This document shows positions 1,429 through 37,088 of a stretch of 64,000 nt of DNA, one piece after another. The notes below the pieces were generated by a model. That model did no database searches and was not told where the DNA came from. It saw only the letters and a list, made by a program, of their open reading frames with translations. The stretch's first letter is position 1; each line of letters begins with the position of its first letter. A program made the position numbers and the translations under genes. Source of the DNA: an uncultured Gammaproteobacteria bacterium (GTDB lineage: Bacteria > Patescibacteriota > Microgenomatia > Levybacterales > GWA1-39-11); NCBI GenBank assembly GCA_964394645.1, contig CAYMYC010000002.1, positions 28,105 to 92,104 of the forward strand. Reading direction: 5' to 3'.

Positions 1429-1572
1429 AACTATCTTCTTATTCATGGTACGGCAAAACATAAGTGCATGTCAAGAAAACACAGCGCTTTTCACGCTACG
1501 CACAGAATACCTTTATTTTGACCTATTTTGATAATCTTGAAAGCATATGTTTCACGTTATACCCTGTATTAT

Positions 1573-2655
1573 ATGGAAAATCACCCAATCCCGCAGGATG
1601 TTACAGGATTTAAATTTAGGCTTATAGGATCTGTTACGGTAAAACAGTTTTTATATCTTTTAGGTGGCGGAGTGTTTGCGCTTTTGTTTTATTTTTTCCC
1701 AATTCCATTTTTGCTAAAACTTCCATTTATGTTTCTTTCAGGAGGTGTAGGGCTTTGTCTTGCGTTTGTGCCTATTGATGGAAGACCTATGGATAAGATG
1801 CTTGTTAACTTCTTTAAGGCAATTCCTGCGGAAAATCAATATATTTACAAAAAACATGGCGCACAAATGCCATATTTCACGTTTACTCCCCGGTCTCACG
1901 CTACCATTACAAGCTCTGCCTCAGAAGACAGCGCAGCCGTACAAAAAGCAAAGCTTTTTAATCAGCTTGCAAGTTCTTATTTTAAGCCTGATCCTGATGA
2001 AAAATCTCAAGTTGAAAACGTGAGCAATCTCTTTAAAGACGGCACAGCTCAACAGGGCGGATTTACGAATAGAGTTATTAAGGCAGATGAAAACGCTCCA
2101 GTAATACCCGCTTCCGCTAGCTTCACTCACCACCAACCGGAAGCAAAAATAGAAGGAATGTCTACTCCCCATGCGAAAGCTCCTGCGCTTCCTGTTCAGG
2201 AGAATAAAAGTCAAATAGTTACCCCACCTGCTGGCTTATCCCAAGTTATTTCTCCTGTGGTGCCCCCAACAACTCCTATTCAATCTGCAACACCACCTCC
2301 AGCAATGCCTCCGCAAGCATCCGTAGGGGGAATAGACATGGCAAACATCTTACAAGGCAAAATACTTGACCCCAGAGGAAAACCGCTACCTCATATCATT
2401 GTGGAAGTGCTTGACACTCAAAACGTTCCACTCCGAACCTTCCGGACTGACGCAAATGGGTTTTTTAGAGCAGCAACTCCACTCCCAAACGGTATGTATA
2501 CACTACATCTGGAGGACACGTTAAAAAAACAAGACTTTCAAGACAAGAGAATAACGCTTGACGGATCCGTAGCTCAACCTATTCAGGTAATATCTGTTGA
2601 TCAACGTGAGAAATTAAGACGCGAGCTATTTGGAGTTGCTCAAAACACTCCATAA
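1573..2655 (+). CDS. PrgI/VirB3-like T4SS membrane protein: an N-terminal TM hairpin, a Pro/Ala/Gln-rich linker and a C-terminal carboxypeptidase-regulatory-like (transthyretin-fold) domain
   Basis: The N-terminus (FKFRLIGSVTVKQFLYLLGGGVFALLFYFFPIPFLL...) matches the charged-then-two-TM pattern of PrgI-family VirB3 analogues. The C-terminal GKPLPHIIVEVLDTQNVPLRTFRTDANGFFRAATPLPNGMYTL resembles CarboxypepD_reg domains. The ORF track starts at a TTG at 1528, and the first ATG is at 1573. Confidence 0.45.
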   Translation: MENHPIPQDVTGFKFRLIGSVTVKQFLYLLGGGVFALLFYFFPIPFLLKLPFMFLSGGVGLCLAFVPIDGRPMDKMLVNFFKAIPAENQYIYKKHGAQMPYFTFTPRSHATITSSASEDSAAVQKAKLFNQLASSYFKPDPDEKSQVENVSNLFKDGTAQQGGFTNRVIKADENAPVIPASASFTHHQPEAKIEGMSTPHAKAPALPVQENKSQIVTPPAGLSQVISPVVPPTTPIQSATPPPAMPPQASVGGIDMANILQGKILDPRGKPLPHIIVEVLDTQNVPLRTFRTDANGFFRAATPLPNGMYTLHLEDTLKKQDFQDKRITLDGSVAQPIQVISVDQREKLRRELFGVAQNTP

Positions 2656-2664
2656 AATCTGCCC

Positions 2665-3279
2665 ATGGCTAAAATTAAATCGAGCACACAATCATTTATT
2701 GAAATCGAAGATATCCGGGATGACACGGTATTTTTGAAAGGGAAAAATGCATGCTCCATTCTGGAGGTATCATCTGTTAATTTTTTTCTTCTTTCCCAAG
2801 ATGAGCAAAACGCCCGCATATATGGGTATATGTCGCTCTTAAATTCCCTCTCTTTTGCTATCCAAATCGTGATAGTTTCAAAAAGGATCGATCTTTCATC
2901 CTATATCTCATCTCTTGATCACAAAATTACCGTCACTCAAAACGCACGAGTTGCTGAACATTTAAGACTTTATAAGGACTTTATCCAAGAGCTTATAAAA
3001 GAAGATGGTTTGCTAGATAAAAAAACATATGTGGTAATCCCGTTTAACGCGTTAGAGTTAGGACCAACATCAGGAGGAGGAAAGAAAGTGTACGAAACAC
3101 GAATTACCGAGGCGATCAAAAGCAAACGAACAAATGTTATGACGCAAATAGAGCGGATTGGTCTTTCCAGTAGAGTTATTAAGGCAGAGGAATTGGGTCG
3201 GGTATTTTTTGAGCTTTTTAACCAAGCGACCATGAACGTGGACTTCTCAACAAGTGACGTAAAAAATATTATTGTGTAA
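2665..3279 (+). CDS. Stand-alone protein resembling the extreme N-terminal domain of long VirB4/TrbE/PrgJ-type ATPases
   Basis: The pattern FIEIEDIRDDTVFLKGKNACSILEVSSVNFFLLSQDEQNARIYGYMSLLNSLSFAIQIVIVSKRIDLSSY follows the CagE/TrbE/VirB4 N-terminal motif: a DG...a..l.g.d...l.s.eeq block, then a loose LnsL...Qi.v.s.r.d pattern. It stops 36 nt before the VirB4 gene, which has its own AAGGAG RBS. Confidence 0.45.
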   Translation: MAKIKSSTQSFIEIEDIRDDTVFLKGKNACSILEVSSVNFFLLSQDEQNARIYGYMSLLNSLSFAIQIVIVSKRIDLSSYISSLDHKITVTQNARVAEHLRLYKDFIQELIKEDGLLDKKTYVVIPFNALELGPTSGGGKKVYETRITEAIKSKRTNVMTQIERIGLSSRVIKAEELGRVFFELFNQATMNVDFSTSDVKNIIV

Positions 3280-3315
3280 ACATATGCTAAAAAAACAAAG
3301 GAGTAATTTTATATC

Positions 3316-5406
3316 ATGCTAGGACTAGGAAAGAAAAAACAAATAGAAAAAGGTGCACCTGCACAAACGACTCAGGCGGCACCACAAAACGCGCAGGCGC
3401 AAACTACACACGAGGTTGAAAAACTGAAGAACGGATCAGTGTCCCTTATAGATCTTCTTGCTCCCTCATCAGTTGAGGTAGATTTTAAATATATACGCGT
3501 AGGAGACGCATTTTACAGAACCTTTATAGTTATTGACTATCCACGTGAAGTTTCTCCCAATTGGCTTTCAATACTCATAGACTACAAGGAGACCATGAAT
3601 GTGTCTATGTTTATATATCCTGTTGAAAGTCGGGATATTCTCTCCAATTTGAAGCGCAAAATTGGAGAAATGGAGGCAACGATTGAATCTGACATGAAAA
3701 ACGGGATAGAACCTGATCCTAAGGTCAGGGCGTCTCTTGAAGACGCGATAGCGCTGCGTGAAGAATTAGCCCGCGGACTTGAACGATTCTTTCAGTTTGG
3801 ACTCTACGTTACGCTTTCCGCAAAAACGGTTGATGAGCTTGATAAAAAAACGAATGAACTTACTTCCCTACTTGCCTCAAACCTACTTGTCATAAAACCT
3901 GCAACACTCCAGATGGAAGACGGCTTTAAAACAACGCTCCCTCTGGGGGAAGATAAATTATTTATCACCCGAAATATGGATACTACATCCGTTGCCTCAA
4001 CGTTCCCCTTCACATCCTATGAAATATCTCAACCAAATGGTATTTTTTATGGAGTAAACACACTGAATAATTCGCTTATCATAGTGGATCGTTTCTCATT
4101 TGAAAACGCAAATTCTGTTGTCTTTGGAAAATCTGGATCTGGAAAATCTTTCCTGGTTAAGCTTGAGGTACTGCGCCAAATGATGTTTGATACAGAAATT
4201 CTCATCATAGACCCTGAAGATGAATATAGAGCCCTCTGCCACGCCCTAGATGGAGAATATATATCCTTCTCAAAGGACTCTGAAGTAAAAATTAACCCGT
4301 TTGCCCTTCTTTCAGATGACAGAACAGAAGCACAGCTTGGAATAAAATTCCTTGCCCTTCACTCACTTCTTAAAATTATGCTTGGTGAATTTTCCCCAAC
4401 ACAGGAAGCGCTTTTGGACCGCGCGCTCGTGTTGTGCTACAAGCAAAAAGGGATAATTCCTGACCCATCAACTTTTGGACGGGAACCTCCTATTCTTGAG
4501 GATCTATATAAAACTCTTCTAAATATGGAAGAGCCAGACGCAAAGGATCTCGCATTTCGGCTAGAAAAATACATCAAGGGAGGGTTTGCAGGACTCTTAA
4601 ACTCACAAACCAATTATGATGTGAAAAATCAGTTAACTATTTTTTCAATAAAACAACTTGAGGAGTCTCTTCGACCCGTAGCCATGCAGGTGATATTAGA
4701 TTTTATCTGGAATAGAGTGAGAACTAAGTTGAAAAAACGCATTTTAATAGTCGATGAGGCATGGTATCTTATGAAAAATCCTGATTCCGCAGCATTTTTA
4801 CAAGGAATTGCAAAACGGGCAAGAAAATACTATTTGGGAGTTACAACGCTTACCCAGGACATTGAAGACTTTTTATCCTCTGATTACGGGAAGGCAATTT
4901 TATCTAATTCTTCAATGCAGATCCTGTTAAAACAAAATTCTTCGGAGGTAGAAACACTTGCCTCAACACTTAACCTATCAGAGGGAGAAAAGCAATTTTT
5001 ACTAACTGCACAGGTTGGAGAGGGACTTTTTTTTGCAGGGCAAAATCACTTAACAGCTCAATTTCTGGCATCAAATTTTGAGTATCAATTGGTCACCTCT
5101 AAACCACAAGACATTTTAGATGAGGCACAAAGAACAAACACGGGAGCGGCAGAACAATTCATAAAAGAAGCAGACGCGCAGGCAAAAGCATCTTCTGAAA
5201 CAATAGCGACCTCTGAAACTCATACCCCTGTTCCACCCCCATCACAACAGCCTGGCGTTCAACCAATAACACAACAGCCCATTTCCCAACCTACTATGCC
5301 GCCGACTAGTCCTGCGGTCCCTACCCCACCGGCAGCTCAAAACCCACAACAAAATACACCAACAGCACAAGCAGAGATTACGCAAACAAAGATAAATAAT
5401 GGATGA
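3316..5406 (+). CDS. virB4: VirB4/TraE-family type IV secretion ATPase (Gram-positive type) with a Pro/Gln-rich low-complexity C-terminal tail
   Basis: Walker A VVFGKSGSGKSF, Walker B RILIVDEAWYLM and GVTTLTQDIEDF are present. The N-terminal block LIDLLAPSSVEVDFKYIRVGDAFYRTFIVIDYPREVSPNWLS is typical of TraE/PrgJ/TcpF-type VirB4. Confidence 0.8.
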   Translation: MLGLGKKKQIEKGAPAQTTQAAPQNAQAQTTHEVEKLKNGSVSLIDLLAPSSVEVDFKYIRVGDAFYRTFIVIDYPREVSPNWLSILIDYKETMNVSMFIYPVESRDILSNLKRKIGEMEATIESDMKNGIEPDPKVRASLEDAIALREELARGLERFFQFGLYVTLSAKTVDELDKKTNELTSLLASNLLVIKPATLQMEDGFKTTLPLGEDKLFITRNMDTTSVASTFPFTSYEISQPNGIFYGVNTLNNSLIIVDRFSFENANSVVFGKSGSGKSFLVKLEVLRQMMFDTEILIIDPEDEYRALCHALDGEYISFSKDSEVKINPFALLSDDRTEAQLGIKFLALHSLLKIMLGEFSPTQEALLDRALVLCYKQKGIIPDPSTFGREPPILEDLYKTLLNMEEPDAKDLAFRLEKYIKGGFAGLLNSQTNYDVKNQLTIFSIKQLEESLRPVAMQVILDFIWNRVRTKLKKRILIVDEAWYLMKNPDSAAFLQGIAKRARKYYLGVTTLTQDIEDFLSSDYGKAILSNSSMQILLKQNSSEVETLASTLNLSEGEKQFLLTAQVGEGLFFAGQNHLTAQFLASNFEYQLVTSKPQDILDEAQRTNTGAAEQFIKEADAQAKASSETIATSETHTPVPPPSQQPGVQPITQQPISQPTMPPTSPAVPTPPAAQNPQQNTPTAQAEITQTKINNG

Positions 5407-5424
5407 ATATTGTAAAACTATCAT

Positions 5425-8016
5425 ATGGCAAATAATTCTGGCACATACACCACTTCTGAGGATCAGATAAAAAATATTGAATCCTCAATAACACAACTGG
5501 TAAATGATCAGAAGGGTCTGGAAGAATTAGTTACAAATGGCACCATTTCACAGGAAGAAGGGGACACAAGAAAAGTTGAAATACGCAAAAAAATAAATAT
5601 TCTTCAAAACGAAAAGGCTGAAGCCGCAAGTGATCTTACTTTAAACCCAAACACTACTACAGAAAAAGCTAAGGAAGTAAACGACCAGGAAAACACGAAC
5701 GATCACAAAAAAGAGGAGCACAAAAGTACACACTCCACAGAGCACAGCCTTCATTTGGCACATAATAAATCTACCAGTAAAAACGAGAGTGAACCTTCAC
5801 TAGTAGACAGCGCATCTTCCGATGTACCGTCGGACCCATCAGAAAATAAAGAAAGAGGAATGGGTAAAAGCTCATCTATATCCTTTGAGAAGGATAGCTC
5901 ATTCAGGGTAAACGAAAACCGAAACTATGAAGATCAAATAGATAAAACGGCTCAAGCTATTGAAAACACTACAAAGCAGGAAACGCCTCCGTCAACACCT
6001 ACACCTTCTGAAGCAAAGCCGGAAGAATATCAGACAAATTCCCCACAAAAAATTGTACCCTCTCAGGAAGCTTCTACAAACGGTGCGCCTACAGCTACTG
6101 TTTCACAAACGACTTCCCCTATAGAACAATCAGATCAAAACATTCCTTCGCAGGAATCTATAAAAGAGTCATCCCCACACAAACCTACGACACCCCAAAA
6201 AGCTCCTTCTAAAACAAAACAGATAGTTAAAACTGCTGCGAAAAAGGGGGCAAAGGGATATGTGGATATATATAAATACACCCCACTAGGTTTTCTGCTA
6301 GGAAGACTAAGCCCACGCTTAAAAGAATGGGAATTTGGCAAAAAAATTGCGACAAGGATTTCAGAAAAAAGACCCAAAAATAAAGAAAAGCCTGAAGGTA
6401 ACGATGAAAAAAACACCCAACCTGAACCTAAAAAAATACAAAAAAAATCAAAAACACTAACCGCTACTAAAAAGGCGACCTCAATAACGCTTACCTGGTA
6501 CAAAAACGTGTATAAAAATTCGCCTCTTGGAATTTTATATAACAATACTAAGCACTTAATTCCCCCCTCTATTACTGCAGGAATTAAAAAAATATTACCC
6601 CGAAAAAAAATTCCTCCAAGTAAACCTCCTGCTGAGATAGGAAAACCAAAAACAGCAAAGGATTACCAAAGAATAGGAATCAATAGAATATTAACAAAGG
6701 CGATTGCGAATGGGTTTGACAGATTTGAACTTCTAAGAAAAGTTAGAGATGCAAAAGTTTGGCAAAGCAAAGCATGGAAATACGGAAGATATGCAGTTTC
6801 CCCTCTTGGAGCCACAGGCTACGCACTCTATAAACGTCGGAGGGAACAAAGACAAAAACAGGAGGAAAAAACCAATCCATCTTCTCATCAGTCACATATG
6901 CAACCAAGAGTGCTTAGAAGTGGGATACAGAACAGAAGCTCCTTTCCTGCAATGTCAAACCTGAATAAGCACCTAGGAAGAAGTTTAAGAAACAAAAGCG
7001 CGCAAAAAGCACTCTCTGCTGCAGGTAAAAAAGGAGGGCAACAAATCGCAAAAAAAGCGCTAAGTCAAATCACTCTGACTTTTCTTAAAACACCTGCTGG
7101 ATGGGTAACTGTTGGAGTTTCCTGTGTAATTTTACTCTTCATTGTGTTTGTAATGACAGTTATCACAATAGCATCTGATAGCTCAAGTGGTTCCGCACTG
7201 GGTGGCGGGGCAGGAGACGTAGGAGGTGGGGGACAGCCACCAACACAAAACCCCATCCCAAACTTTACGCTACAAAAAACAGTTTCACAAACCGAATTAG
7301 CTGAGATGGGCGAAATTACCTACACCATTTCCTATTCCTTTACTTCTGGCTCAACCGTTAAAAAGGAAGATATTATTATTTTTGATCAAATTCCAGAAAA
7401 CACAAAATTGGTTGATAATAAAACTTCGGGGAATTATACACTTGATACAACAGACCGCACCCTATCATGGAATCTTTCAGATTCAGGAAACGCCGCCGCA
7501 TCAACATTCTCCTTTACTGTTCTTCCTGTAAAAACTGATATAAACGTGGTAAACTCCGCGTGGGCACAGGCAAACGCATCTACCGCAGGACCAGGAGGAG
7601 CGCAATCACCAAATGCATGTACGAGACCCACAGAAGGAACAGGATATTGTTCATATGAACATCTCCTCCCTTATTTTAATAACCAACCCGACCTAGCACT
7701 AACCGCCTCACTGATTTGCAACCTTGAGAGCGGAAGCGATCCTTTTGCCACCAATAAGGTATGTCCAGATTACAGCATAGGACTGTTCCAGATCAATCTA
7801 ATTGCTCACTGTGGAGAAGCGTTTGATCCTCCACCAACCTGTACGGTCCTTAATTCTTCGCTTAGAAACGCGTGCGAACAGAGATTTCTGGATCCTTTAG
7901 AAAACATCCGGTATGCATATCAGCTTTATTTAAGCGGAGGAACTGGTTGGACCGCAAACAAGTGGTCCACATACCCTGCAGCAAAAAGCATTTTAGATTC
8001 CTGTGGTAATATATAG
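5425..8016 (+). CDS. Large membrane-anchored cell-wall hydrolase. It has an approximately 550-aa basic/disordered cytoplasmic N-terminal region, one TM helix, a DUF11-like beta-domain and a C-terminal SLT lytic transglycosylase domain (VirB1-like).
   Basis: The C-terminus (ESGSDPFATNKVCPDYSIGLFQIN ... YAYQLY) matches the family-1 lytic transglycosylase catalytic E-S ... G-L-(M/F)-Q-I motif. The TM helix is WVTVGVSCVILLFIVFVMTVITIA. The N-terminal half is coiled-coil and K/E/S/T/P-rich. Confidence 0.6.
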   Translation: MANNSGTYTTSEDQIKNIESSITQLVNDQKGLEELVTNGTISQEEGDTRKVEIRKKINILQNEKAEAASDLTLNPNTTTEKAKEVNDQENTNDHKKEEHKSTHSTEHSLHLAHNKSTSKNESEPSLVDSASSDVPSDPSENKERGMGKSSSISFEKDSSFRVNENRNYEDQIDKTAQAIENTTKQETPPSTPTPSEAKPEEYQTNSPQKIVPSQEASTNGAPTATVSQTTSPIEQSDQNIPSQESIKESSPHKPTTPQKAPSKTKQIVKTAAKKGAKGYVDIYKYTPLGFLLGRLSPRLKEWEFGKKIATRISEKRPKNKEKPEGNDEKNTQPEPKKIQKKSKTLTATKKATSITLTWYKNVYKNSPLGILYNNTKHLIPPSITAGIKKILPRKKIPPSKPPAEIGKPKTAKDYQRIGINRILTKAIANGFDRFELLRKVRDAKVWQSKAWKYGRYAVSPLGATGYALYKRRREQRQKQEEKTNPSSHQSHMQPRVLRSGIQNRSSFPAMSNLNKHLGRSLRNKSAQKALSAAGKKGGQQIAKKALSQITLTFLKTPAGWVTVGVSCVILLFIVFVMTVITIASDSSSGSALGGGAGDVGGGGQPPTQNPIPNFTLQKTVSQTELAEMGEITYTISYSFTSGSTVKKEDIIIFDQIPENTKLVDNKTSGNYTLDTTDRTLSWNLSDSGNAAASTFSFTVLPVKTDINVVNSAWAQANASTAGPGGAQSPNACTRPTEGTGYCSYEHLLPYFNNQPDLALTASLICNLESGSDPFATNKVCPDYSIGLFQINLIAHCGEAFDPPPTCTVLNSSLRNACEQRFLDPLENIRYAYQLYLSGGTGWTANKWSTYPAAKSILDSCGNI

Positions 8017-8018
8017 CT

Positions 8019-8486
8019 ATGAATAAAGTAAGAATAGTAATTTTTTCTGTATTAGTTACAATCATTGTTATTGTGTCAACAATTATCTTCCTTTTGTCAT
8101 CCGCACCACAAAAAACCACCCCACAAGAACTGATTGTCCCTACAAAAATCCCACCAGTCCTTTCAACAACTGATAAAATTATAATATCCGGAATTCCTAT
8201 TAAAAATCCCTACATTTCCCCGGTCCAACTAGATACACAGGGAGATTCACTCATGACGAGCACCGAGACATATAATCTTGTCTACCTAAAGCCGTTTAAT
8301 GAATTTCTTATATCAATAACCGGTGCTCCATTTGAAGTAAATAGACAACTTGCGGAAAAGGCTTTTCTTGAAAGGGTTGGCATAACACAGGAACAAGCTT
8401 GCCAAATAAAGGTAACTATTACTACTCCTGCCTCCGTCAACCCGACAGAAGCAGGTCAAAAGTATCCATTAAGTTTTTGTCCTTAG
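8019..8486 (+). CDS. Small single-pass membrane protein of the T4SS-like block
   Basis: The N-terminal TM helix is VRIVIFSVLVTIIVIVSTIIFLL. It is tightly coupled to flanking genes with 2-3 nt spacers. Confidence 0.4.
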   Translation: MNKVRIVIFSVLVTIIVIVSTIIFLLSSAPQKTTPQELIVPTKIPPVLSTTDKIIISGIPIKNPYISPVQLDTQGDSLMTSTETYNLVYLKPFNEFLISITGAPFEVNRQLAEKAFLERVGITQEQACQIKVTITTPASVNPTEAGQKYPLSFCP

Positions 8487-8489
8487 CCT

Positions 8490-9134
8490 ATGAAAAAATT
8501 ATTATTCATTTCAGCCATGCTAATTCTTGCCCCTATCTCACAAAGTGCTTTTGCCCAATTTAGAACTGATAGTAACACAGTTGCAACAAAGGTGGGAAAT
8601 CCCTCCAGTGTCAGTTCTAGCATAGGAGCTGTTGCGTCAGAACTGGCTAGTGTTGTAAGCGCTGCCTGTGAGGGCGCTGTTACTAGCAAAAACATTTCCT
8701 GCATGCAGGGCTTGTCTTTACCAAATATTCCGCATAAGCACCTGGCGATAAATGAGATAGTTAGATCTGCGACAGCAAATTATTGCGATGACAATAAAAA
8801 ATCTCTAGGAACGTGTCTACAGTGTGTGGGGTTTGTACAGGGAGCAGTAGGTGGCGCTCTAGGCGCATATTTAAACAATGGAGGGAACGCAAAGGATTTT
8901 GCAACAAATGTTCCATCAGGCTATCAATACATACAAGCTTCAAGTGGAACACTAGTTGCGGAAGGTGATATTATAATAAAAACTGGTGGCGGTTTTGGAC
9001 ATATCGCGGTTGTTACAAAAGTTTACGATTCAAGCTTAATACAAGTAGCTGAGGCTAATTTTAATTACGGAGGACAGATAGGACTTAACAACACTGCTCT
9101 TTCTTTATGGAATGGATGGTTGAGGAAACAATGA
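8490..9134 (+). CDS. Secreted CHAP-domain peptidoglycan hydrolase (amidase/endopeptidase)
   Basis: The signal peptide is MKKLLFISAMLILAPISQSAFA. The CHAP signature has a Cys in CLQCVGFVQGAVGGALGAY and a His in GGGFGHIAVVTKVYD. Confidence 0.65.
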   Translation: MKKLLFISAMLILAPISQSAFAQFRTDSNTVATKVGNPSSVSSSIGAVASELASVVSAACEGAVTSKNISCMQGLSLPNIPHKHLAINEIVRSATANYCDDNKKSLGTCLQCVGFVQGAVGGALGAYLNNGGNAKDFATNVPSGYQYIQASSGTLVAEGDIIIKTGGGFGHIAVVTKVYDSSLIQVAEANFNYGGQIGLNNTALSLWNGWLRKQ

Positions 9135-9832
9135 ATACACGAAAACTACTTTTTATAGGAATTAGTATAACAGCGGTTATTATCATACTGTTTTTGTTTT
9201 TAATCTTCTCCTTTAAGGGAAACTCTCCTGTAACAAACCTGCCCACCCCTTCCATAGGGGTGACAGGAGTAACAACTCCAAGTGTCTTGGGATTTCAACT
9301 AACTTCAAGCACTCCTCAAAACAAAGCAGTGGGTGTACAACTAAACACTCCAATATCTTTTTTGTTTAATAAAGAGGTAGGAAATGCAACCGCAACCATA
9401 ACACCAACCACTAATATTTCTACTACCTTTTCCGGAAGAGCTGTTATCATTAAGCCCAGTACAAATCTTTCACCCTCCACACAGTATGTAGTAGTTCTTG
9501 AGGTAAATTCTCAATCCTTCTTTTTAACTTTTACAACCCAGGGACCTACTCCCACCATAGGACAAAACACGAGACCCATTGACCAGGTAGATACGGAACA
9601 AGAAATTCTCAAACAAACCCATCCCGATGTATTCTTATCTAACTACACGCCCCATACTAGTAGTACCATTTCTATTACTAGCGCATACATCTCAGGTAAT
9701 CCAGGGCACTTCCAATTTACTGTTTCTTCGAGGGGAAATGCAGTGTCTGCAACTGCTGAGTTTCAATCTTGGGCACAGCAAAAAGGATTAAATAACTCCC
9801 AGGTGGCATCACTCGACGTTGTCTACAAATAA
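9131..9832 (+). CDS. Membrane-anchored Ig-like (Big/SbsA-like) domain protein
   Basis: There is an ATGA start/stop overlap with the CHAP gene. The N-terminal TM helix is followed by a beta-rich Ig-like region (VGVQLNTPISFLFNKEVGNATATITPTTN...YVVVLEV). Confidence 0.4.
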   Translation: MNTRKLLFIGISITAVIIILFLFLIFSFKGNSPVTNLPTPSIGVTGVTTPSVLGFQLTSSTPQNKAVGVQLNTPISFLFNKEVGNATATITPTTNISTTFSGRAVIIKPSTNLSPSTQYVVVLEVNSQSFFLTFTTQGPTPTIGQNTRPIDQVDTEQEILKQTHPDVFLSNYTPHTSSTISITSAYISGNPGHFQFTVSSRGNAVSATAEFQSWAQQKGLNNSQVASLDVVYK

Positions 9833-9834
9833 AC

Positions 9835-10935
9835 CTACTCCTGAACGCGGACTGGCATAATAACGTGGAAAAAGTCCGGATCATCATCTGTTGTAAAAAG
9901 CGCAGGCTCAAATGGACTATTTATTTGAAGTGTTATTGTTTTTCCTTCTACGGCACGCAGAAAATCAAGTAAAAATTTGACGTTAAACGCAATGTGATTA
10001 TCATCTCCTACTTGTTCACCGTCAATTTTTGATTCTGCTTCTCCCAAACTTGAGGAGTCAACCTGTAGATGAAGTGCTCCTAGCGCAATGTTGCAGTTTA
10101 TAATGTTTGCGTTTTCTCGGGCAAAAACGGATGTTACCTTCAACAATCGTAATAATTCTTCCCTATCGAGTCTTATACTGGTCTTAAGCTCCTTCGGAAT
10201 AACTTTTTCATAATCAGGGTATTGCCCTTCAATCAGTCTCCCAACCAGCAGCGCTCCTCCTGATTCCAAAATCGCCTGGTTCCCTGTTTTATGAATATAT
10301 AAAAAAATGTTTTGCCCCTTAAGACTTAGACCTTCACTTATCAGTCTTTCCGAAACAATCATTCCCTCAGCCATCTGCGTAACGCCGGTGTCCTTTACTC
10401 TTTTTAGTGAAAGCCTATATCCATCAGTTGCAACATAATCAATGCTTCCTTCTTTTTTAACCACATAAATCCCCGTCAGGTGCGGGCGAGATTCGTCTTG
10501 GGACACTGCAAAAATGAGCTTGCTGAAGACGTTTTTAAATTGAGAGTAGGTATATTCCCCCACTTTATCCCCTTTTTCTTCATATAGTCTTGGGAACTCA
10601 TCACGAGGCAGTGCTTGAAACTTAAATGACCCGCTTCCCGCGGTTAAAACCACTTGATCCTTCTGCTGTTTTATCTTCGCCTTCTCATGTGTGAGAGAGG
10701 AAAGTATTTCAACAAACTGCCGACCTGGAACGAGTACTCCTCCGACCCCCTCTATCTTAGAGGGAATACTTATGCGCACACCAAACTCCAAGTCTGTTGC
10801 TGATAGTGCAAATTCCGATGTTGTAGTCTCCAGAAGAACACTGGATAATATGGGTATCTGTGAATGGGCTGGAACGATCTTTCCTAAAAGAGATAAATAC
10901 TCCGTTATGTTTTCAGTTAAAAAATCTACTTCCAT
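9835..10935 (-). CDS. dnaN: DNA polymerase III beta sliding clamp
   Basis: It is 366 aa, the N-terminus is MEVDFLT...ILSSVLLE...LSATDLEF, and the three-domain length and position downstream of dnaA fit. Confidence 0.9.
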   Translation of the reverse strand: MEVDFLTENITEYLSLLGKIVPAHSQIPILSSVLLETTTSEFALSATDLEFGVRISIPSKIEGVGGVLVPGRQFVEILSSLTHEKAKIKQQKDQVVLTAGSGSFKFQALPRDEFPRLYEEKGDKVGEYTYSQFKNVFSKLIFAVSQDESRPHLTGIYVVKKEGSIDYVATDGYRLSLKRVKDTGVTQMAEGMIVSERLISEGLSLKGQNIFLYIHKTGNQAILESGGALLVGRLIEGQYPDYEKVIPKELKTSIRLDREELLRLLKVTSVFARENANIINCNIALGALHLQVDSSSLGEAESKIDGEQVGDDNHIAFNVKFLLDFLRAVEGKTITLQINSPFEPALFTTDDDPDFFHVIMPVRVQE

Positions 10936-11113
10936 AATATGTTTTTAAATAGTAGTAGCAGTAGTATAGTAGGACAAGTGTAAAAAAGCAAACAGACGTG
11001 CGTAAGAAAATGTGGATAACTTATGGATTACTTTGTGCACAGAATGTTTATATCTTAGAAAAACGTTTTTTGTTATAGTTATCCCCCACCTTTTTCCCAT
11101 CCGACACCACCAC
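10936..11113. promoter_or_regulatory. dnaA-dnaN intergenic oriC-like region with DnaA boxes
   Basis: A perfect TGTGGATAA (reverse complement of TTATCCACA) lies at 11011..11019. An adjacent TTATGGATTA sits at 11021..11030 and TTATCCCCCA at 11079..11088. AT-rich stretches and a TAGTAG-type microrepeat lie at 10950..10973. Confidence 0.5.
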
Positions 11114-12436
11114 TTATCCCGCAAGTAGCTTTCTTAAATGCATTACTTCTTCTTTGAGGCGATCTTCGCGGGTCATTCCTTCCGCCATTTTATCCACACC
11201 GTGCATAACGGTTGTATGGTCCCGCCCGCCCAACAAATTTCCAATCTCTTTAAATGAAAGCCGCAAGTCTTGTTTTAATAGATACATGCAGATTTGTCTT
11301 GGTTTAACGAATATTGCGTCTCTTCGGTCTCCCTTGAGTTGAGTCGACTTAATATTGTAAAAGTTGCACACTGCGTCAACAACCGTGTCTGGATGGAGAA
11401 ATTTTTCTTTCTCCTGTTTTTCTCCTAGCAAGCGAAATACATCAGACCTTGTAATAGGTCCTGATTTTGCTATCTCTACGGTTGCGAGCTTTAATAAAAA
11501 CCCTTCAAGCGCCCGAGTGTTTTCTATTCTTTCGGCAATCATTTTTGCAAGCTCAGGGTCTAGTTCATTTCCTCTCTTCCTACTTTTAAGCATAAGGATT
11601 GCGGTTCTTAACTCAAAATCAGGGGGTTGTATGTCTACCGTTAGTCCCCCTTCAAACCGCGATGCAAGTCTGGCTTCTATTTTTTTTATTTCAGAAGGGG
11701 GTCTGTCTGAGGAGAAAACAATTTGTCCCCCCCCATCAATAAGTGCGTTAAAGGTGTGGAACAATTCTTCTTGGACCTTTTCTTTTCCCGCCAGAAATTG
11801 AATATCGTCAAGAAGCAGAAGATTTGTGTGTCTAAATTTTTTCCGAATATTTTGCGTTGACTTATTCATAATAGCCTCGACCACTTCATTTGTGAACTCT
11901 TCGGTTGTGAGGTATAAGATGTGTGCTTGTGGGTTTTTTTCAAGAACAGTGTTTGCTATAGCATGCATAAGATGCGTTTTTCCAACACCTACATCTCCGT
12001 AGATAAAGAGAGGGTTATATTTTTTCCCAGGGTTTTCAGCTACTGTCATTGATGCAGTGTAGGCAAGTTGGTTTGAGTCAGAAACAGCAAGGGATGAGAA
12101 TTGGTATTCTTTTTTTATCCTTGGGTTGACTACTCTTTCTAGCTCTGGTTGTCTGATTGTGAAAAGTGGACCCTCATCTTTTTTTATCAGGTTTTTAGCT
12201 TTCGTATATGTGAAGATAATACTTGTGCTTGCTCCTGCTCTTTTATCAAAAATAGATTTTATGAGAGGTAAGTATTTCTTTTCAAGTTGGTCAGCTATTA
12301 TGAAAGTGGGAACAGAAATTGTTGCGACATTGTTTTCAAACGAAACAAGCTCTGTATGTTTGAAGAATGTTAAAAACGTTCCTTTAGATACATCAATTTG
12401 TATTTCAGAAAGAATTTGTGTCCATAAGTCATCCAT
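11114..12436 (-). CDS. dnaA: Chromosomal replication initiator DnaA
   Basis: Walker A GDVGVGKTHLMHAIAN, the AAA+ box and the C-terminal DNA-binding helix (DHTTVMH) are present. The ORF track start at 12454 is a TTG, and the first ATG at 12436 gives MDDLW. Confidence 0.9.
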   Translation of the reverse strand: MDDLWTQILSEIQIDVSKGTFLTFFKHTELVSFENNVATISVPTFIIADQLEKKYLPLIKSIFDKRAGASTSIIFTYTKAKNLIKKDEGPLFTIRQPELERVVNPRIKKEYQFSSLAVSDSNQLAYTASMTVAENPGKKYNPLFIYGDVGVGKTHLMHAIANTVLEKNPQAHILYLTTEEFTNEVVEAIMNKSTQNIRKKFRHTNLLLLDDIQFLAGKEKVQEELFHTFNALIDGGGQIVFSSDRPPSEIKKIEARLASRFEGGLTVDIQPPDFELRTAILMLKSRKRGNELDPELAKMIAERIENTRALEGFLLKLATVEIAKSGPITRSDVFRLLGEKQEKEKFLHPDTVVDAVCNFYNIKSTQLKGDRRDAIFVKPRQICMYLLKQDLRLSFKEIGNLLGGRDHTTVMHGVDKMAEGMTREDRLKEEVMHLRKLLAG

Positions 12437-12472
12437 ATTTATATAAGGCAACAAGAGTTAAAAGTATAGTTA

Positions 12473-12481
12473 TGTGGATAA
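12473..12481. promoter_or_regulatory. Consensus DnaA box (TGTGGATAA) 37 nt upstream of the dnaA start. It probably marks the autoregulatory, upstream half of a bipartite origin.
   Basis: Exact 9-mer seen in the sequence. Confidence 0.5.
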
Positions 12482-12589
12482 CTTTCTGTCAAGGGTTAAT
12501 TTATGTTGATTTATGAATATAATGTAAGAGTTCTTCTTTTGCACAAAATCCTATTGACTCGGGATGGCATTTTTGGTTTACTAGTAACC

Positions 12590-21912: not shown

Positions 21913-21923
21913 ATTATTCAAAG

Positions 21924-21995
21924 TGGCTGGGGTGGGGTTTGAACCCACGACCGCAGGGATATGAATCCTGTGCTCTACCACTGAGCTACCCAGCC
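21924..21995 (-). tRNA. tRNA-Met (anticodon CAU), elongator-type, or possibly the lysidine-modified tRNA-Ile2
   Basis: A cloverleaf was folded by hand. The acceptor GGCUGGG pairs with CCCAGCC, the anticodon loop is UUCAUAU and the T-loop is UUCAAAC. Confidence 0.75.
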
Positions 21996-22051
21996 AAACG
22001 TGTTCTTTATTGTACCAAAAATAGCCTCAAGAAGGAAATTGGGGTAATTTC

Positions 22052-22080
22052 TTGTCCGAAACGGTTGTATTCGTTATAAT
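22052..22080 (+). promoter_or_regulatory. Sigma70-like promoter (TTGTCC, 17-nt spacer, TATAAT) upstream of tRNA-Ser(GGA)
   Basis: There is a perfect -10 TATAAT at 22075..22080, a 17-nt spacer and a 4/6 match at -35. Confidence 0.5.
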
Positions 22081-22086
22081 ATGCAA

Positions 22087-22110
22087 GCTTGGGGGAGTCG
22101 GATAACAACC
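22087..22110 (+). repeat. Partial 5' copy (about 14 nt, 1 mismatch) of the downstream tRNA-Ser(GGA) gene, ending at GGAUA
   Basis: GGGGGAGUCGGAUA compared with the tRNA 5' end GGAGGAGUCGGAUA. It lies in the predicted leader of the tRNA transcript. Confidence 0.5.
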
Positions 22111-22153
22111 ATGATAGTAATCAGAACGTTGACCGATCCTCTGCGTTTTCACT

Positions 22154-22242
22154 GGAGGAGTCGGATAGTGGACCATTCCGATTGCTTGGAAAGCAATTGT
22201 GCTGAAAGGCACGCGCGAGTTCGAATCTCGCCTCCTCCGCCA
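22154..22242 (+). tRNA. tRNA-Ser (anticodon GGA), with a long variable arm and an encoded CCA
   Basis: In the manual fold the acceptor GGAGGAG pairs with CUCCUCC, the anticodon stem is AUUGC/GCAAU, the loop is UUGGAAA, the variable hairpin is GUGCU-GAAA-GGCAC and the T-loop is UUCGAAU. Confidence 0.8.
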
Positions 22243-22244
22243 AT

Positions 22245-22685
22245 CTAACTTTTTACAAGCCTTTCAATTATTGGCATGGCTTCTGTGAACACTTTTTTAT
22301 CTGATTTATAAGTTAATCTTTCCATTACTTTCTCTCTCGGAAGCCATTCTACATTTTCCATCTCATGATCGTGTTTTGTAATATCTCCTCCTGCGTAGCG
22401 CATGATAAAGTAATATACCGTTTTTTTTCTCTTAATTCCTTCCATCATATACCAGTACATGACTGGTTTTACTTCTGTAATAATTTCTCCATCCGCTCCC
22501 GTTTCCTCTTTCACTTCACGCACAGCTGTTTCTTTTTTGCTCTCTCCCTGTAGGTGTTCTTTATCCCCTATTAATCCTTTCGGAAACACCCATCCATGGT
22601 GGAATGAATGCTGTGAGACAAGAATAAAAACTGAGTCGCCTTCAACTTTAAATACTACCCCTCCTGCAGAATATTCAAATATCAT
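22245..22685 (-). CDS. NUDIX hydrolase
   Basis: The Nudix box GESKKETAVREVKEETG (GX5EX7REUXEEXGU) is present. Confidence 0.75.
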   Translation of the reverse strand: MIFEYSAGGVVFKVEGDSVFILVSQHSFHHGWVFPKGLIGDKEHLQGESKKETAVREVKEETGADGEIITEVKPVMYWYMMEGIKRKKTVYYFIMRYAGGDITKHDHEMENVEWLPREKVMERLTYKSDKKVFTEAMPIIERLVKS

Positions 22686-22796
22686 AATACTATTATATCA
22701 TTCTTTAGGCTCAAAAATTGATTTGGAGGTCAAAATACACTAAAATATCACCTACAGTCTGTCCCTTCGTGGTGAGGTAAGACGCGCTTATTGTAT

Positions 22797-22870
22797 GCAC
22801 CCGTAGCTCAATGGATAGAGCATTGGATTGCGGATCCAAAGGTTTGGTGGTTCGACCCCACTCGGGTGCG
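22797..22870 (+). tRNA. tRNA-Arg with an anticodon that reads as GCG (loop UUGCGGA) and is unusual. It is a paralogue of the tRNA-Arg(CCG) 250 nt downstream.
   Basis: In the manual fold the acceptor GCACCCG pairs with CGGGUGC, the D-arm is GCUC-AAUGGAUA-GAGC, the anticodon stem is UUGGA/UCCAA and the T-loop is UUCGACC. Confidence 0.65.
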
Positions 22871-22924
22871 CTTCGATTCTTTAGTGCAGATGTTTCCAGA
22901 TGAGAAAGGAAAGAGCTAGTGAAT

Positions 22925-23009
22925 GGAGGGTTCGCATAGTGGTCAATTGCACGAGTTTCGAAAACTCGATCCCGTAAGGGATTCACAGGTTCAAATCCTG
23001 TACCCTCCG
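22925..23009 (+). tRNA. tRNA-Ser (anticodon CGA), long variable arm
   Basis: The acceptor GGAGGGU pairs with ACCCUCC, the anticodon stem is CGAGU/ACUCG, the loop is UUCGAAA, the variable hairpin is GAUCCC-GUAA-GGGAUU and the T-loop is UUCAAAU. Confidence 0.8.
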
Positions 23010-23058
23010 CTTACATTTTGATTGAATTAAATTTATAAATCCCAAAAGTTGCGAATAT

Positions 23059-23115
23059 GCGCCTGTAGCTCAATGGATAAGGAAACCTTGTCCATTTCGC
23101 AACAAGTGAAAACAT
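23059..23115 (+). repeat. Exact 21-nt copy of the 5' end of tRNA-Arg(CCG) (GCGCCUGUAGCUCAAUGGAUA), then 36 nt of unrelated sequence, directly upstream of the intact gene
   Basis: A direct sequence comparison shows the copy ends after GGAUA, as the Ser(GGA) partial copy does. Confidence 0.6.
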
Positions 23116-23188
23116 GCGCCTGTAGCTCAATGGATAGAGTACAAGATTCCGGATCTTGCGGTTGGTGGTTCGACCCCACTCAGGCGCG
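23116..23188 (+). tRNA. tRNA-Arg (anticodon CCG)
   Basis: The acceptor GCGCCUG pairs with CAGGCGC, the anticodon stem is CAAGA/UCUUG, the loop is UUCCGGA and the T-loop is UUCGACC. Confidence 0.8.
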
Positions 23189-23189
23189 C

Positions 23190-23744
23190 TTAAGAGGACT
23201 TATCGAGTGGGAAATTTTTAGATAACCAATCTCCTGACTTTTCCATAAATGTTTGTTTTACAACCTCCCGATAAGGAAGAAAATTGATTAAAACCCGTCG
23301 CGTATGGTCTCGGGGTACATTACCTAATGTTAGTCTCAACTCTCCGGGGATAAGTGCTTCAGTCCGAATAATGAGAGTATCTACTTTATCAATTTTCTTA
23401 AAAAAGAAATCATACAGTTCCCCCCAAATATAAAAATGGTCTTCTACCTTAACTCCTTCTGTTGAAATCCTATAATGAAAATCTTTTGGAGGAACTAGAG
23501 ATAAGACAATTGATAGGAAGGTGATTGCTGCAACAGCTAGCATCAGTTGGTATTGGGCAAAAAGAAATACAATAACCTCAATAAAGAAAAATATAAGAAG
23601 CGCAGACGTGTAAAACTCTTTCCCTTTTTTTCTCCACGGTCGCCCGGGTGCAGTCCATGATAAAAGCGTTCTTACATCAGTGTAGTTTTGTGGGTAAGAA
23701 GAATCAGGTTGGTTAGCTTCATTCTCCATCTTTTTATCATGCAC
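23190..23744 (-). CDS. Hypothetical membrane protein (two TM helices followed by a possible bacterial PH-like domain)
   Basis: The hydrophobic segments are LLIFFFIEVIVFLFAQYQLMLAVAAITFLSIVLSLV. There is no catalytic motif. Confidence 0.35.
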   Translation of the reverse strand: MHDKKMENEANQPDSSYPQNYTDVRTLLSWTAPGRPWRKKGKEFYTSALLIFFFIEVIVFLFAQYQLMLAVAAITFLSIVLSLVPPKDFHYRISTEGVKVEDHFYIWGELYDFFFKKIDKVDTLIIRTEALIPGELRLTLGNVPRDHTRRVLINFLPYREVVKQTFMEKSGDWLSKNFPLDKSS

Positions 23745-23785
23745 TAAAATAGAGAATAAATCAATACAATACTCAGGAGCGTTGC

Positions 23786-24655
23786 CTAGAGTTCTATAAG
23801 AGTTGTGCTTTCTGTTGGTTTAGCGTCTTTAATGTATTGCAGGTAGCGTTCAGTTGAGGAAAGCCGTTTGTGTCCTAAGACTTTGGATAGGAAAGTAAGT
23901 GAAACACCATTTCTTAAATGATGAGCAACAAAGGTGTGTCTAAGATCATTTATTTTTGCATTTTCTATGCCTCCTTTTCTAAAGTACCGCTCTACTGCAT
24001 CTCTTATGTTGCGAACTAAAAATGGCTTTCCCGTTTTTGTAATAAATACATGGTTATCTGTTGTCTCAGGACGTATGGCAAGATATCTTTTAAGCGCGTC
24101 CTTTGCGCGTCTGTTTAGTTGAACATCACGCGCTGCATGCCCCTCATATGGTGCTATATGAAGCGCGTTTTCTTCAACATCATTCATCTTAAGCCCCGCT
24201 AACTCTCCAATTCTAATTCCAGTTTGTAGAAGAACTTCAATAATCGCATACAATCTTGGGTCAACAGAGGCAGCGTCTCTTAAGGCTCTGTATTCTAAGG
24301 GGGTTAATACTCTGGGAGGTGAAAGTTCATATTTTGGATGAGATACAAGCAAAGAAGGGTCATCAGTAACAAATTCATTAACCTTTAAAAATCTATAAAA
24401 TGTTCTGGTAGAGTTTAACTTTCTTGAAAGAGATTTAGGAGTATACCCTTTTTCTTGAAGGCTCGCCAAAAACGCCTGAATATCCTCTGATGTTACATCT
24501 TTAATATGTTCTTTTTTGAGTTCCTCAAGAAAGAACATTAGCTGGTCAATGTCTTTTCCGTATGCTAATATGGTTGCGGATGCACGTTTCTTTGACCTTA
24601 AGAAGTCGTGAAACTTTGCGTGTGCGTCTCTAGTTTTTACTGGATCAGTATTCAT
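23786..24655 (-). CDS. Tyrosine site-specific recombinase (XerC/XerD/phage-integrase family)
   Basis: C-terminal catalytic residues LRHTFVAHHL ... GHKRLSSTERYL (R-H-R-Y) and an N-terminal SAM-like core-binding domain are present, in 289 aa. Confidence 0.75.
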   Translation of the reverse strand: MNTDPVKTRDAHAKFHDFLRSKKRASATILAYGKDIDQLMFFLEELKKEHIKDVTSEDIQAFLASLQEKGYTPKSLSRKLNSTRTFYRFLKVNEFVTDDPSLLVSHPKYELSPPRVLTPLEYRALRDAASVDPRLYAIIEVLLQTGIRIGELAGLKMNDVEENALHIAPYEGHAARDVQLNRRAKDALKRYLAIRPETTDNHVFITKTGKPFLVRNIRDAVERYFRKGGIENAKINDLRHTFVAHHLRNGVSLTFLSKVLGHKRLSSTERYLQYIKDAKPTESTTLIEL

Positions 24656-30167: not shown

Positions 30168-30332
30168 TTTTTGAATTAAGAGCGTGTAGATCCCATTTAT
30201 GGGATAACGAGGAGAAGGTCTTTTGCCAACGACGGTAAAAGAGATCGGACCCCACTCACATAAAAAGTGAGGGGAGGATTTGCGGAAACCTTCAGGTTGT
30301 AATGCCAACCTAAAGAATTTTTTAACACTCTT
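30168..30332 (+). ncRNA. Candidate glmS (GlcN6P-responsive) ribozyme in the 5' leader of glmS
   Basis: It lies on the plus strand about 100-260 nt upstream of glmS. An AG-CG(U)G cleavage-site-like start at about 30181 is followed by a P1 hairpin GAUCCCA-UUU-UGGGAUA. The highly conserved core ACGAGGAG, then GG..CGG..GAUCGGACC and a CCCCACUCAC/GUGAGGGG hairpin resemble the P2/P2.1 and P3 regions of Firmicute glmS ribozymes. It was not checked with a covariance model. Confidence 0.4.
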
Positions 30333-30432
30333 TAGTAATAAGGAGAATAAAGAAAAATTTATGCACTACTCGTCTCACTTCCCCAAGGTATTTTTTTTAT
30401 AAATAGCCTTTGTTTTTTTCAATTATTTTTAT

Positions 30433-36235: not shown

Positions 36236-36475
36236 TTATATAAAGAGGAAGAACAGAAGAGTAAAGACTCCTAAGAGCAAGAGAGATGCAATTACTTGAA
36301 TTGAAGCAGCTTCCTTAACTAGCAATGGAAGTGTAATATCCAGGCGTTTTGCAATCCTTAGTGTTTCCCTTTGGTGTAAATAATTTACTGCCAGGAGTAA
36401 AAGAAGCGTGACCAATATAATAATTTTTATAAAAAATGCAATTGTCATCATATTAATTATGTAGTTGTGTTCCAT
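36236..36475 (-). CDS. Small two-TM membrane protein
   Basis: Hydrophobic 79-aa ORF overlapping the upstream gene by 23 nt. Confidence 0.3.
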   Translation of the reverse strand: MEHNYIINMMTIAFFIKIIILVTLLLLLAVNYLHQRETLRIAKRLDITLPLLVKEAASIQVIASLLLLGVFTLLFFLFI

Positions 36476-37088
36476 ATTCGCTTATTTGGGATTTTTTTGG
36501 CATAACCCAAATTTGTTGAGATTTAAAGTCTGGCATAGTATGGAGATGGGAAGATAGGTAATTTGCGATTTTTCGGGGCGATCTTATTCCTCTGATAACA
36601 AATTCTTCTTGATGGGTAGGTCTGTCAAATGTTATTACAACATTGCCTAAATCTAAAAGCTCAGAGACAAATCCATAAAGCTCTGCGTCTATTTCAGTAC
36701 ATCTGATTTGATCAAGAAGAACGGAATTTGAAACTTCTGAAAAAAGAGGGTTATATTTTATCTCAATAACTTTTCTGCTTGTGATTATATATAAGTGAAA
36801 ATACCAGTGAATAACTTCCCTTATAATCGTGCCGCTTCCTACTAACGTAAATACAGAAAAAATAGCACAAGAAAGTAGTACATCTCTTAACAGAAAATAA
36901 GAAAGTCCGGTAAAAAGCGTATTTATCAGAAGCGCAAAAGTAGTCATTTGGAGGAGCCTTATAAATAATTCAGCTGCATGTTCACGTACTGCCAGAATTA
37001 GTTTTTCATCAGGAAAAGTTAAGAATTTTATAACCTCATCCTGTTCCAGGGTTTCTTTTAAGAAGGTTTTACTTAATATCTCATTCAT
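36453..37088 (-). CDS. Membrane protein with two TM helices and a PH-like (YdbS/YdbT-type) C-terminal region
   Basis: A TM hairpin (FALLINTLFTGLSYFLL ... LSCAIFSVFTLVGSG) is followed by a beta-rich region, and no motifs are present. Confidence 0.35.
   Translation of the reverse strand: MNEILSKTFLKETLEQDEVIKFLTFPDEKLILAVREHAAELFIRLLQMTTFALLINTLFTGLSYFLLRDVLLSCAIFSVFTLVGSGTIIREVIHWYFHLYIITSRKVIEIKYNPLFSEVSNSVLLDQIRCTEIDAELYGFVSELLDLGNVVITFDRPTHQEEFVIRGIRSPRKIANYLSSHLHTMPDFKSQQIWVMPKKSQISEYGTQLHN

Follow-up and report, generated by a model that had tools for sequence, protein, structure and literature searches.

The 64-kb stretch of DNA analysed here (the window) carries close to its left end a seven-gene operon that had been read as a Gram-positive-type secretion or conjugation-like module. 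In our analysis, the locus is very probably a vertically inherited, chromosomal type IV secretion system (T4SS) of the Patescibacteria-clade type, derived from the conjugation machine of monoderm bacteria (mating-pair formation type FATA, MPF-FATA) and carried by a member of the Levybacteria. The Levybacteria T4SS is a core machine that these ultra-small, host-dependent Patescibacteria have kept beside the replication origin, and the function we favour for it is contact-dependent macromolecule transfer between epibiont and host. The operon occupies positions 1573–9832 and consists of the following genes:

1573–2655, + strand: PrgI/VirB3-like membrane protein with a hairpin of two transmembrane (TM) helices, a Pro-rich linker and a CarboxypepD_reg-like beta-sandwich
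2665–3279, + strand: TrsD-like protein, the VirB4 N-terminal domain as a separate polypeptide
3316–5406, + strand: VirB4 ATPase, monoderm MPF-FATA type by its profile matches, with a disordered P/Q-rich C-terminal tail
5425–8016, + strand: predicted single-pass membrane cell-wall hydrolase of 863 aa, in the position of VirB1, TraG or PrgK
8019–8486, + strand: 155-aa protein anchored at its N terminus; the alpha/beta ectodomain has two invariant Cys; no Pfam match
8490–9134, + strand: secreted cysteine peptidase/amidase of the CHAP family; its Sec signal peptide ends in AFA
9107–9832, + strand: Ig-like (Big_5) surface protein with an N-terminal anchor, closing the operon

All seven open reading frames (ORFs) are intact, run in the same direction and are as tightly coupled as had been proposed, with successive gaps of 9, 36, 18, 2, 3 and −28 nt. 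The original prediction had started the block at a TTG codon at 1528; the ORF is real, but the gene callers run on an identical contig begin the PrgI gene at ATG 1573, giving a protein of 360 aa.

The first three genes form the membrane platform, and the roles suggested for them (a PrgI/VirB3-like TM protein, a VirB4 N-domain and a VirB4 ATPase with Walker motifs) were borne out by profile matches well outside what chance would give. The PrgI-like protein matches PF12666 at 32.4 bits (Pfam gathering threshold, GA, 27) and PF13620 at 31.7 bits, with TM helices at residues 21–39 and 41–59. The TrsD-like protein matches the TrsD/TraD model NF041427 (E 2.9e-6), and PF26593 (TraC-like) is on record for it. 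On the 894-position model NF045975, built for the VirB4 of the Mycoplasma integrative and conjugative element (ICE), the TrsD-like protein covered positions 100–276 and VirB4 positions 281–892 in colinear order, and the two genes are therefore read as one split VirB4. The ATPase itself scores 424.7 bits on the CD1110-family model NF045971 (cut-off 325) and matches the P-loop_TraG family PF19044 (1e-36). It contains Walker A (GKSGSGKS, 271–278) and Walker B (ILIVDE, 476–481), and its best PDB match is the Thermoanaerobacter VirB4 4ag5 (E 2.8e-45). As read from these matches, the affinity of this VirB4 is with monoderm MPF-FATA, in keeping with the Gram-positive type that had been assigned to the system.

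Conservation of the locus beside dnaN and dnaA

Judged by its sequence, the source organism is a Candidatus Levybacteria bacterium (Patescibacteria, or candidate phyla radiation (CPR); class Microgenomatia): those named among the 120 best VirB4 matches (at least 68% identity) are all Levybacteria or Patescibacteria metagenome-assembled genomes (MAGs). As a separate observation, many species-representative MAGs with a Levybacteria-type locus (L005, L006, L008 and others) are titled 'uncultured Gammaproteobacteria bacterium' in ENA, an apparent mislabel.

One genome per species was scanned with two peptide patterns taken from an alignment of Levybacteria VirB4, which yielded 406 genomes encoding a VirB4 relative. 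We kept 80 loci with VirB4 identities of 51–92%, and tblastn matches to the window proteins were counted over 82 loci, where many absences are contig ends. Under these conditions TrsD was present in 79 loci and PrgI in 77, in each of these 77 directly upstream of TrsD, and the pilins and regulator that lie upstream of the window were found in 55–61 and 43 loci, respectively. The same loci contained dnaN in 68 cases and dnaA in 62. The shared order is regulator, pilins, PrgI, TrsD, VirB4, a variable stretch, and then dnaN and dnaA on the opposite strand, and it is kept in most of the 80 species-level loci. In the window the two replication genes are placed as follows:

9835–10935, − strand: dnaN, convergent with the Big_5 gene and 2 nt from the operon end
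11114–12454, opposite strand to the operon: dnaA, beyond dnaN

Over the 56 loci with full coverage, mean identity to the window protein was 65.7% for VirB4, 56.5% for DnaA and 43.5% for DnaN; VirB4 was more conserved than DnaA in 52 of the 56 and more conserved than DnaN in 55. The GC content of the operon is that of the neighbouring genes. Because of the synteny at dnaN/dnaA, a VirB4 under stronger constraint than DnaA, and the neighbour-like GC content, the T4SS block is, on this comparison, a vertically inherited chromosomal core locus.

Perfect DnaA boxes occur in the whole window only at 11011, 11190 and 12473, approximately 1.2–2.6 kb from the operon end. All three cluster around dnaA (10936–12502), the cumulative GC-skew minimum lying instead near 24–25 kb, and the rnpA-yidC-jag group, the usual neighbour of dnaA, is found at 47.8–49.4 kb.

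The variable genes after virB4

Past virB4 the picture changes from conservation to exchange. The window's own proteins from this region were detected by tblastn in few of the 82 loci (the 863-aa protein in 21, the 155-aa protein in 8, CHAP in 6 and Big_5 in 4), and even in relatives with 86–92% VirB4 identity the Big_5 gene is replaced by an unrelated 157-aa protein. What persists is a layout, kept in 68 loci: the gene after virB4 encodes a single-pass protein (a tail of 30–600 aa, one TM segment and an ectodomain), and up to five genes for small anchored or secreted proteins come next. Pfam assigned the 68 ectodomains to DUF11 (25), SLT (10), SLT_3 (6), M23 (4), CHAP (4), glucosaminidase (2) and phage lysozyme (2), with single amidases and one M74, while the 136 small proteins included Big_5 (16), M23 (7), CHAP (4), C39-like (3), PEGA (3) and NlpC/P60 (1). 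By these domain counts, the genes after VirB4 are a fast-evolving cassette, with exchange of wall-hydrolase heads from species to species. The SLT and CHAP genes, which in the original prediction define together with VirB4 the minimal Gram-positive channel, are one variant of this swappable cassette, and such a channel also needs VirB6-, VirB8- and VirD4-like parts.

The 863-aa protein had been described as a membrane-anchored SLT lytic transglycosylase of about 860 aa. The membrane anchor stands: a disordered, K/S/T/E-rich tail of approximately 550 aa, predicted to be cytoplasmic because it has no TM segment, leads into a single TM helix at about 553–589, followed by an Ig-like DUF11 beta-sandwich (25.7 bits, GA 24.6) and a C-terminal helical head. 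The profiles do not bear out the narrower assignment to lytic transglycosylases; the head gives no SLT match and scores only 21–23 bits on SLT_3 (GA 27), a threshold passed by three of the five homologues that a word-index search with the ectodomain could detect. The alignment of the heads contains the invariant motifs LESGSDPF (Glu768) and DYSIGLFQIN (Asp782). Together with a structure model that was built from a shallow alignment, reached a pLDDT of 66 and was used for fold class only, we call the head lysozyme-like (SLT_3 or c-type-lysozyme-like), so that it would be either a muramidase or a lytic transglycosylase. The tail also contains three copies of the motif YKx[ST]PLG (residues 283–291, 363–371 and 456–464; window 5425–7080), which recurs 3–4 times in the diverged tails of the nearest relatives (L002–L005 and L008) and is missing from loci further removed; it could serve as a short linear motif for docking.

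The remaining three cassette genes correspond to the small TM protein, secreted CHAP hydrolase and Ig-like surface protein that had been anticipated. The anchor of the 155-aa protein is predicted, the CHAP protein matches PF05257 at 38.7 bits (GA 26) and has motifs around Cys112 and His171, and the surface protein matches PF13205 at 36.7 bits (GA 23.6), with a TM segment at 9–43.

The structure model of the 155-aa protein (pLDDT 86) is confident and has a TM anchor and a small alpha/beta ectodomain with the two invariant cysteines, and a profile of it, run against 1.84 billion representative sequences, matched 2,504 clusters at E <= 1e-3 and 1,809 at E <= 1e-10. By these profile matches, the protein belongs to a large family without annotation, whose members are 150–190 aa long. 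Within the Levybacteria we searched with a local hidden Markov model from which the TM region had been removed, since TM-helix matches inflate the full-length version. The family was present in 25 of the 68 loci, each time directly 3' of the single-pass hydrolase gene. When the 68 loci were sorted by lysozyme-like head and 155-aa partner, 22 had both, 3 the head alone, 2 the partner alone and 41 neither (Fisher p 1.4e-12, uncorrected for phylogeny).

Each of two loci from other Patescibacteria (L087:6811-7986 and L089:4738-5967) encodes a fusion protein in which a VirB2-like pilin domain, behind a signal peptide, is joined to a lysozyme head of SLT_3-like type; both have the look of wall hydrolases displayed on a pilus. 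Directly after each fusion gene, and away from virB4, comes the gene for a distant member of the 155-aa family. The tracking of the head, taken with the neighbours of the fusions, thus points to the 155-aa family and the lysozyme-like head as a dedicated enzyme–partner pair, in which the small protein could possibly be an immunity protein, an inhibitor or a chaperone.

A VirB4 that is more constrained than DnaA, sitting beside quickly exchanged hydrolases, is suggestive, though no proof, of an adaptation of these enzymes to host walls that differ. As the heads are exchanged while VirB4 is nearly fixed, we think that they act at least partly on the host wall. Taken further, the genes after virB4 might go beyond a helper role of the VirB1 kind and be a host-range cassette, in which the lysozyme-like head, displayed on membrane or pilus, attacks the host wall and the 155-aa partner provides self-protection as immunity protein or inhibitor, or acts as a specific chaperone; this is a speculative proposal that we consider possible and rather unlikely. 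If it were true, the Patescibacteria T4SS would be an effector/immunity weapon locus, and the hydrolase swaps would track host wall chemistry.

Upstream genes and the proposed function of the machine

The region beyond window position 1, where the flank was to be searched for further components, was read on an identical contig (L085; also L001) for 18.5 kb. The module indeed continues there, with pilin genes and a regulator. Read inwards from the far end, the order is the 572-aa, 1059-aa and 443-aa proteins, four pilins, and the pair of 652-aa and 113-aa proteins:

L085:19859-20342, + strand in window orientation: 572-aa polytopic membrane protein, approximately 18 kb upstream of virB4
L085:16668-19847, − strand: 1059-aa tail-anchored protein, predicted cytoplasmic with a single C-terminal TM segment
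L085:15261-16592: 443-aa putative regulator with a C-terminal OmpR/PhoB-type winged helix (Trans_reg_C)
L085:12349-15219: four PF18895 VirB2-like pilin genes, 4.3–7.2 kb upstream of virB4, the first with a 470-aa ectodomain
1–981 (5' part in the window; L085:10344-12302), − strand: 652-aa coiled-coil protein, predicted cytoplasmic and tail-anchored by a C-terminal TM segment
983–1324, − strand: 113-aa acidic protein, first gene of a divergent two-gene unit, its stop 1 nt from the 652-aa start
1325–1572, no strand: divergent intergenic region, by its position the presumed promoter of the seven-gene operon

The 443-aa protein lacks a receiver domain; its long N-terminal part gives a weak AAA_16-like signal instead. 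It lies upstream of the pilins in 43 of the 82 loci and is likely a dedicated regulator of the system. The pilins reach 37 bits on the Mbov_0395 pilin-like model of the Mycoplasma ICE, slightly short of the 40 bits required, and pilin-like proteins may already exist within MPF-FATA, a point that bears on whether the Patescibacteria co-opted their pilins from diderm systems. For the 652-aa protein, which lies between the pilin array and the operon, only weak SMC/Rad50-like coiled-coil matches were found, and tblastn detected it in 10 of the 82 loci; its membership in the T4SS is uncertain. The 113-aa protein has no family match and is present in 15 of the 82. The two tail-anchored proteins, of 652 and 1059 aa, flank the pilin array and are conserved in close relatives only. 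In 11 other loci (L013, L023, L011 and others), a polytopic HExxH protein of 226–234 aa with a faint M50-like signal lies between pilins and operon (for example L023:6992-7690, − strand) and could be a pilin-processing protease; it is not at that position in the window genome. Scans for promoter and terminator consensus sequences around the operon gave results no better than shuffled sequence.

How the machine might work can be pictured by analogy with VirB3/VirB4 systems and with transposon sequencing (Tn-seq) results from Southlakia. The PrgI/VirB3 protein would dock VirB4 hexamers on the membrane, VirB4 would extract pilins from the membrane and polymerise a pilus or channel through the wall, and the lysozyme-like and CHAP enzymes would cut glycan strands and peptide stems where the apparatus crosses the peptidoglycan. 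The outcome would be host-contact-dependent transfer of macromolecules between epibiont and host, not donation of DNA. Between uptake from the host and export of effectors, uptake is somewhat more likely. Neither VirD4 nor any other coupling protein nor a relaxase was found in the 64-kb window or in the 18.5 kb upstream, and the window contains no ICE integrase; their absence from the block had been noted before. A VirD4-like model matched only the P-loop of VirB4 (E 0.013). From the lack of a coupling protein and relaxase in the window and flank, we therefore take it that the machine is not a DNA donor. The suggestion that this might be a chromosomally fixed T4SS of an episymbiont with a role other than plasmid transfer is supported by the monoderm type of VirB4, the CPR host, the synteny at dnaN/dnaA, the constraint on VirB4 and published work in which the Patescibacteria system is essential and not conjugative (PMC12102498; PMC10633639).

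Several points weigh against this reading of the locus. The system is known here from its genes alone, and the pilus, the direction of transport, the substrate and the wall that the hydrolases target are proposals made by analogy. VirD4 homologues are encoded far from virB4 in many Patescibacteria (PMC12102498), and a coupling protein may be present elsewhere in this genome. The lysozyme-like head does not reach the Pfam threshold, the confidence of its model is moderate (pLDDT 66), and the 155-aa protein, tested as a VirB8-like subunit, gave a negative result. Moreover, the operon contains no VirB6-like polytopic protein. A scan of all loci for polytopic ORFs returned A6 as the sole recurrent family on the T4SS side, at approximately −10 kb from virB4 in at least 12 loci, and the 572-aa upstream protein belongs to it (37% identity, E 7e-19). 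Neither A6 nor the 572-aa protein has a Pfam, NCBIfam or PDB-sequence match or detectable VirB6 homology, so the latter is only a positional candidate for a VirB6-like channel subunit.

It is also possible, and we hold this view only tentatively, that the locus is mainly an attack device. Its lysozyme-like and peptidase enzymes, perhaps with other effectors, would be displayed on or exported through the pilus or channel so as to breach and damage the host cell, and the 155-aa partner would protect the producer as an immunity protein or inhibitor. The swapping of hydrolase heads between species around a fixed motor is in line with this, as are the co-occurrence of the 155-aa family with the lysozyme-like head (p 1.4e-12) and the presence of the same partner gene after the pilin–lysozyme fusions in other Patescibacteria. 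Protein export was also proposed as one option by Wang et al. (2023; PMC10633639).

We consider it improbable that the locus is a working conjugation or DNA-export machine whose coupling protein and divergent relaxase are encoded elsewhere in the genome. Most Patescibacteria genomes encode VirD4 homologues, coupling-protein genes are often distant from virB4 (PMC12102498), and a relaxase of an unrecognised family is conceivable. Nevertheless, relaxases were found in 103 of 3,035 genomes, the homologue of the type IV coupling protein (T4CP) is not essential in Southlakia whereas the T4SS is (PMC12102498), and a core set conserved above DnaA would not be expected for a self-transfer function. 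We reject as very improbable the decayed or partial ICE that the original prediction had kept in play, drifting after loss of relaxase, coupling protein and integrase. In its favour, VirB4, TrsD and PrgI have homologues on conjugative elements of Firmicutes and Mycoplasma, and no relaxase or T4CP was found nearby. Against it, the gene order is constant beside dnaN/dnaA in most of the 80 species-level genomes, VirB4 exceeds DnaA in conservation, none of the seven closely coupled ORFs is broken, their GC is like that of the neighbours, and the sole recombinase is Xer-like and 14 kb off, with housekeeping genes in between.

The remainder of the window consists of housekeeping genes, among them FtsH, tRNA synthetases, MurD, GlmS, penicillin-binding proteins, YidC/RnpA, glycolysis and a P-type ATPase. 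Five tRNA genes (Met, Ser, Arg, Ser, Arg) adjoin the Xer-like tyrosine recombinase in a cluster at 21923–24655. The recombinase gene (23786–24655, − strand) was considered as a sign of an ICE and rejected; the product scores approximately 160 bits on both the XerC and XerD models, below their cut-offs, and housekeeping genes separate it from the block. A glmS ribozyme (30170–30370, + strand; 57.1 bits, GA 37) lies directly 5' of glmS (30433–32199). Three ORFs have a weak family match or none: 32204–34081 (−), 36453–37088 (−) and 37263–38828 (+), of 625, 211 and 521 aa. An 878-aa DUF4012 protein (40554–43190, +) adjoins polysaccharide-export and Wzy-type genes.

Comparison with known systems

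With the archaeal Ced system the locus shares a weak VirB4-family relation (CedB model, E 1.8e-11), and Ced is a precedent for a VirB4-type machine that imports. In contrast to Ced, the score is 43 bits against a cut-off of 700, and no CedA-like partners were seen. The Mycoplasma ICE (Mbov_0395 pilin-like, Mbov_0397 VirB4) is similar in that TrsD and VirB4 together are colinear with the single Mbov_0397 model. It differs from the Levybacteria locus, which has a two-gene VirB4 and a chromosomal setting, and all scores lie below the equivalog cut-offs.

Also related are the MPF-FATA conjugation systems of monoderms (CTn2 CD1110, pGO1 TrsC/TrsD/TrsE/TrsG, pIP501 Tra and pCF10 Prg), with which the locus shares a VirB4 above the CD1110 cut-off, TrsD and PrgI partners and a membrane-anchored cell-wall hydrolase after the ATPase. 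Unlike these systems, it has no T4CP, relaxase or oriT in the window or upstream flank and no recognisable VirB6 (PrgH/TraL) or VirB8-like (PrgL/TraM) subunit. Its glycosidase and CHAP domains are on two proteins, its pilins are VirB2-like, and it is not on a mobile element.

By its sequence and gene content, the Levybacteria locus is an instance of the T4SS already published for the Patescibacteria clade, which a 2025 review lists as a distinct T4SS type (PMC12857230). In a survey of 3,035 Patescibacteria genomes, VirB4 was found in 2,417, mostly as one monophyletic clade nested in MPF-FATA, with TrsD, PrgI/VirB3 and VirB2-like pilin arrays nearby, relaxases in only 103 genomes and, in Paceibacteria and Microgenomatia, a site near dnaA/dnaN (Quinonero-Coronel et al., 2025; PMC12102498). 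In Southlakia epibionticum ML1 (Saccharibacteria), Tn-seq showed that the T4SS cluster SEML1_0006-0019, pilins included, is essential for epibiotic growth, and neither a coupling protein nor a relaxase is recognisable in it (Wang et al., 2023; PMC10633639). The window locus has in common with these systems a VirB4 of MPF-FATA ancestry with adjacent TrsD and PrgI/VirB3, a VirB2-like pilin array, lysozyme and peptidase genes after virB4, no relaxase or coupling protein nearby, and a chromosomal site near dnaA/dnaN in a CPR host. Against this background there are three differences. Southlakia has an essential VirB6, and no VirB6 homologue is recognisable in the Levybacteria locus. VirB3 beside VirB4 is rare in Microgenomatia (22.6%; PMC12102498), whereas 77 of the 82 Levybacteria loci have a PrgI-like gene ahead of TrsD. 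VirB1 is rarely associated with the Patescibacteria system (PMC12102498), whereas a hydrolase-bearing single-pass protein follows VirB4 in most Levybacteria loci.

The T4SS is one of the few machines that all genome-reduced, host-dependent Patescibacteria retain, and it is essential in the one tractable species. The Levybacteria locus is not a new kind of system; it is a clean Microgenomatia example in which a motor more constrained than DnaA stands beside exchanged wall-cutting genes and an unannotated partner family. What goes beyond the earlier papers is the swapped hydrolase cassette and the unannotated 155-aa family that tracks the lysozyme-like head, and these features suggest direct experiments on how epibionts breach their hosts.

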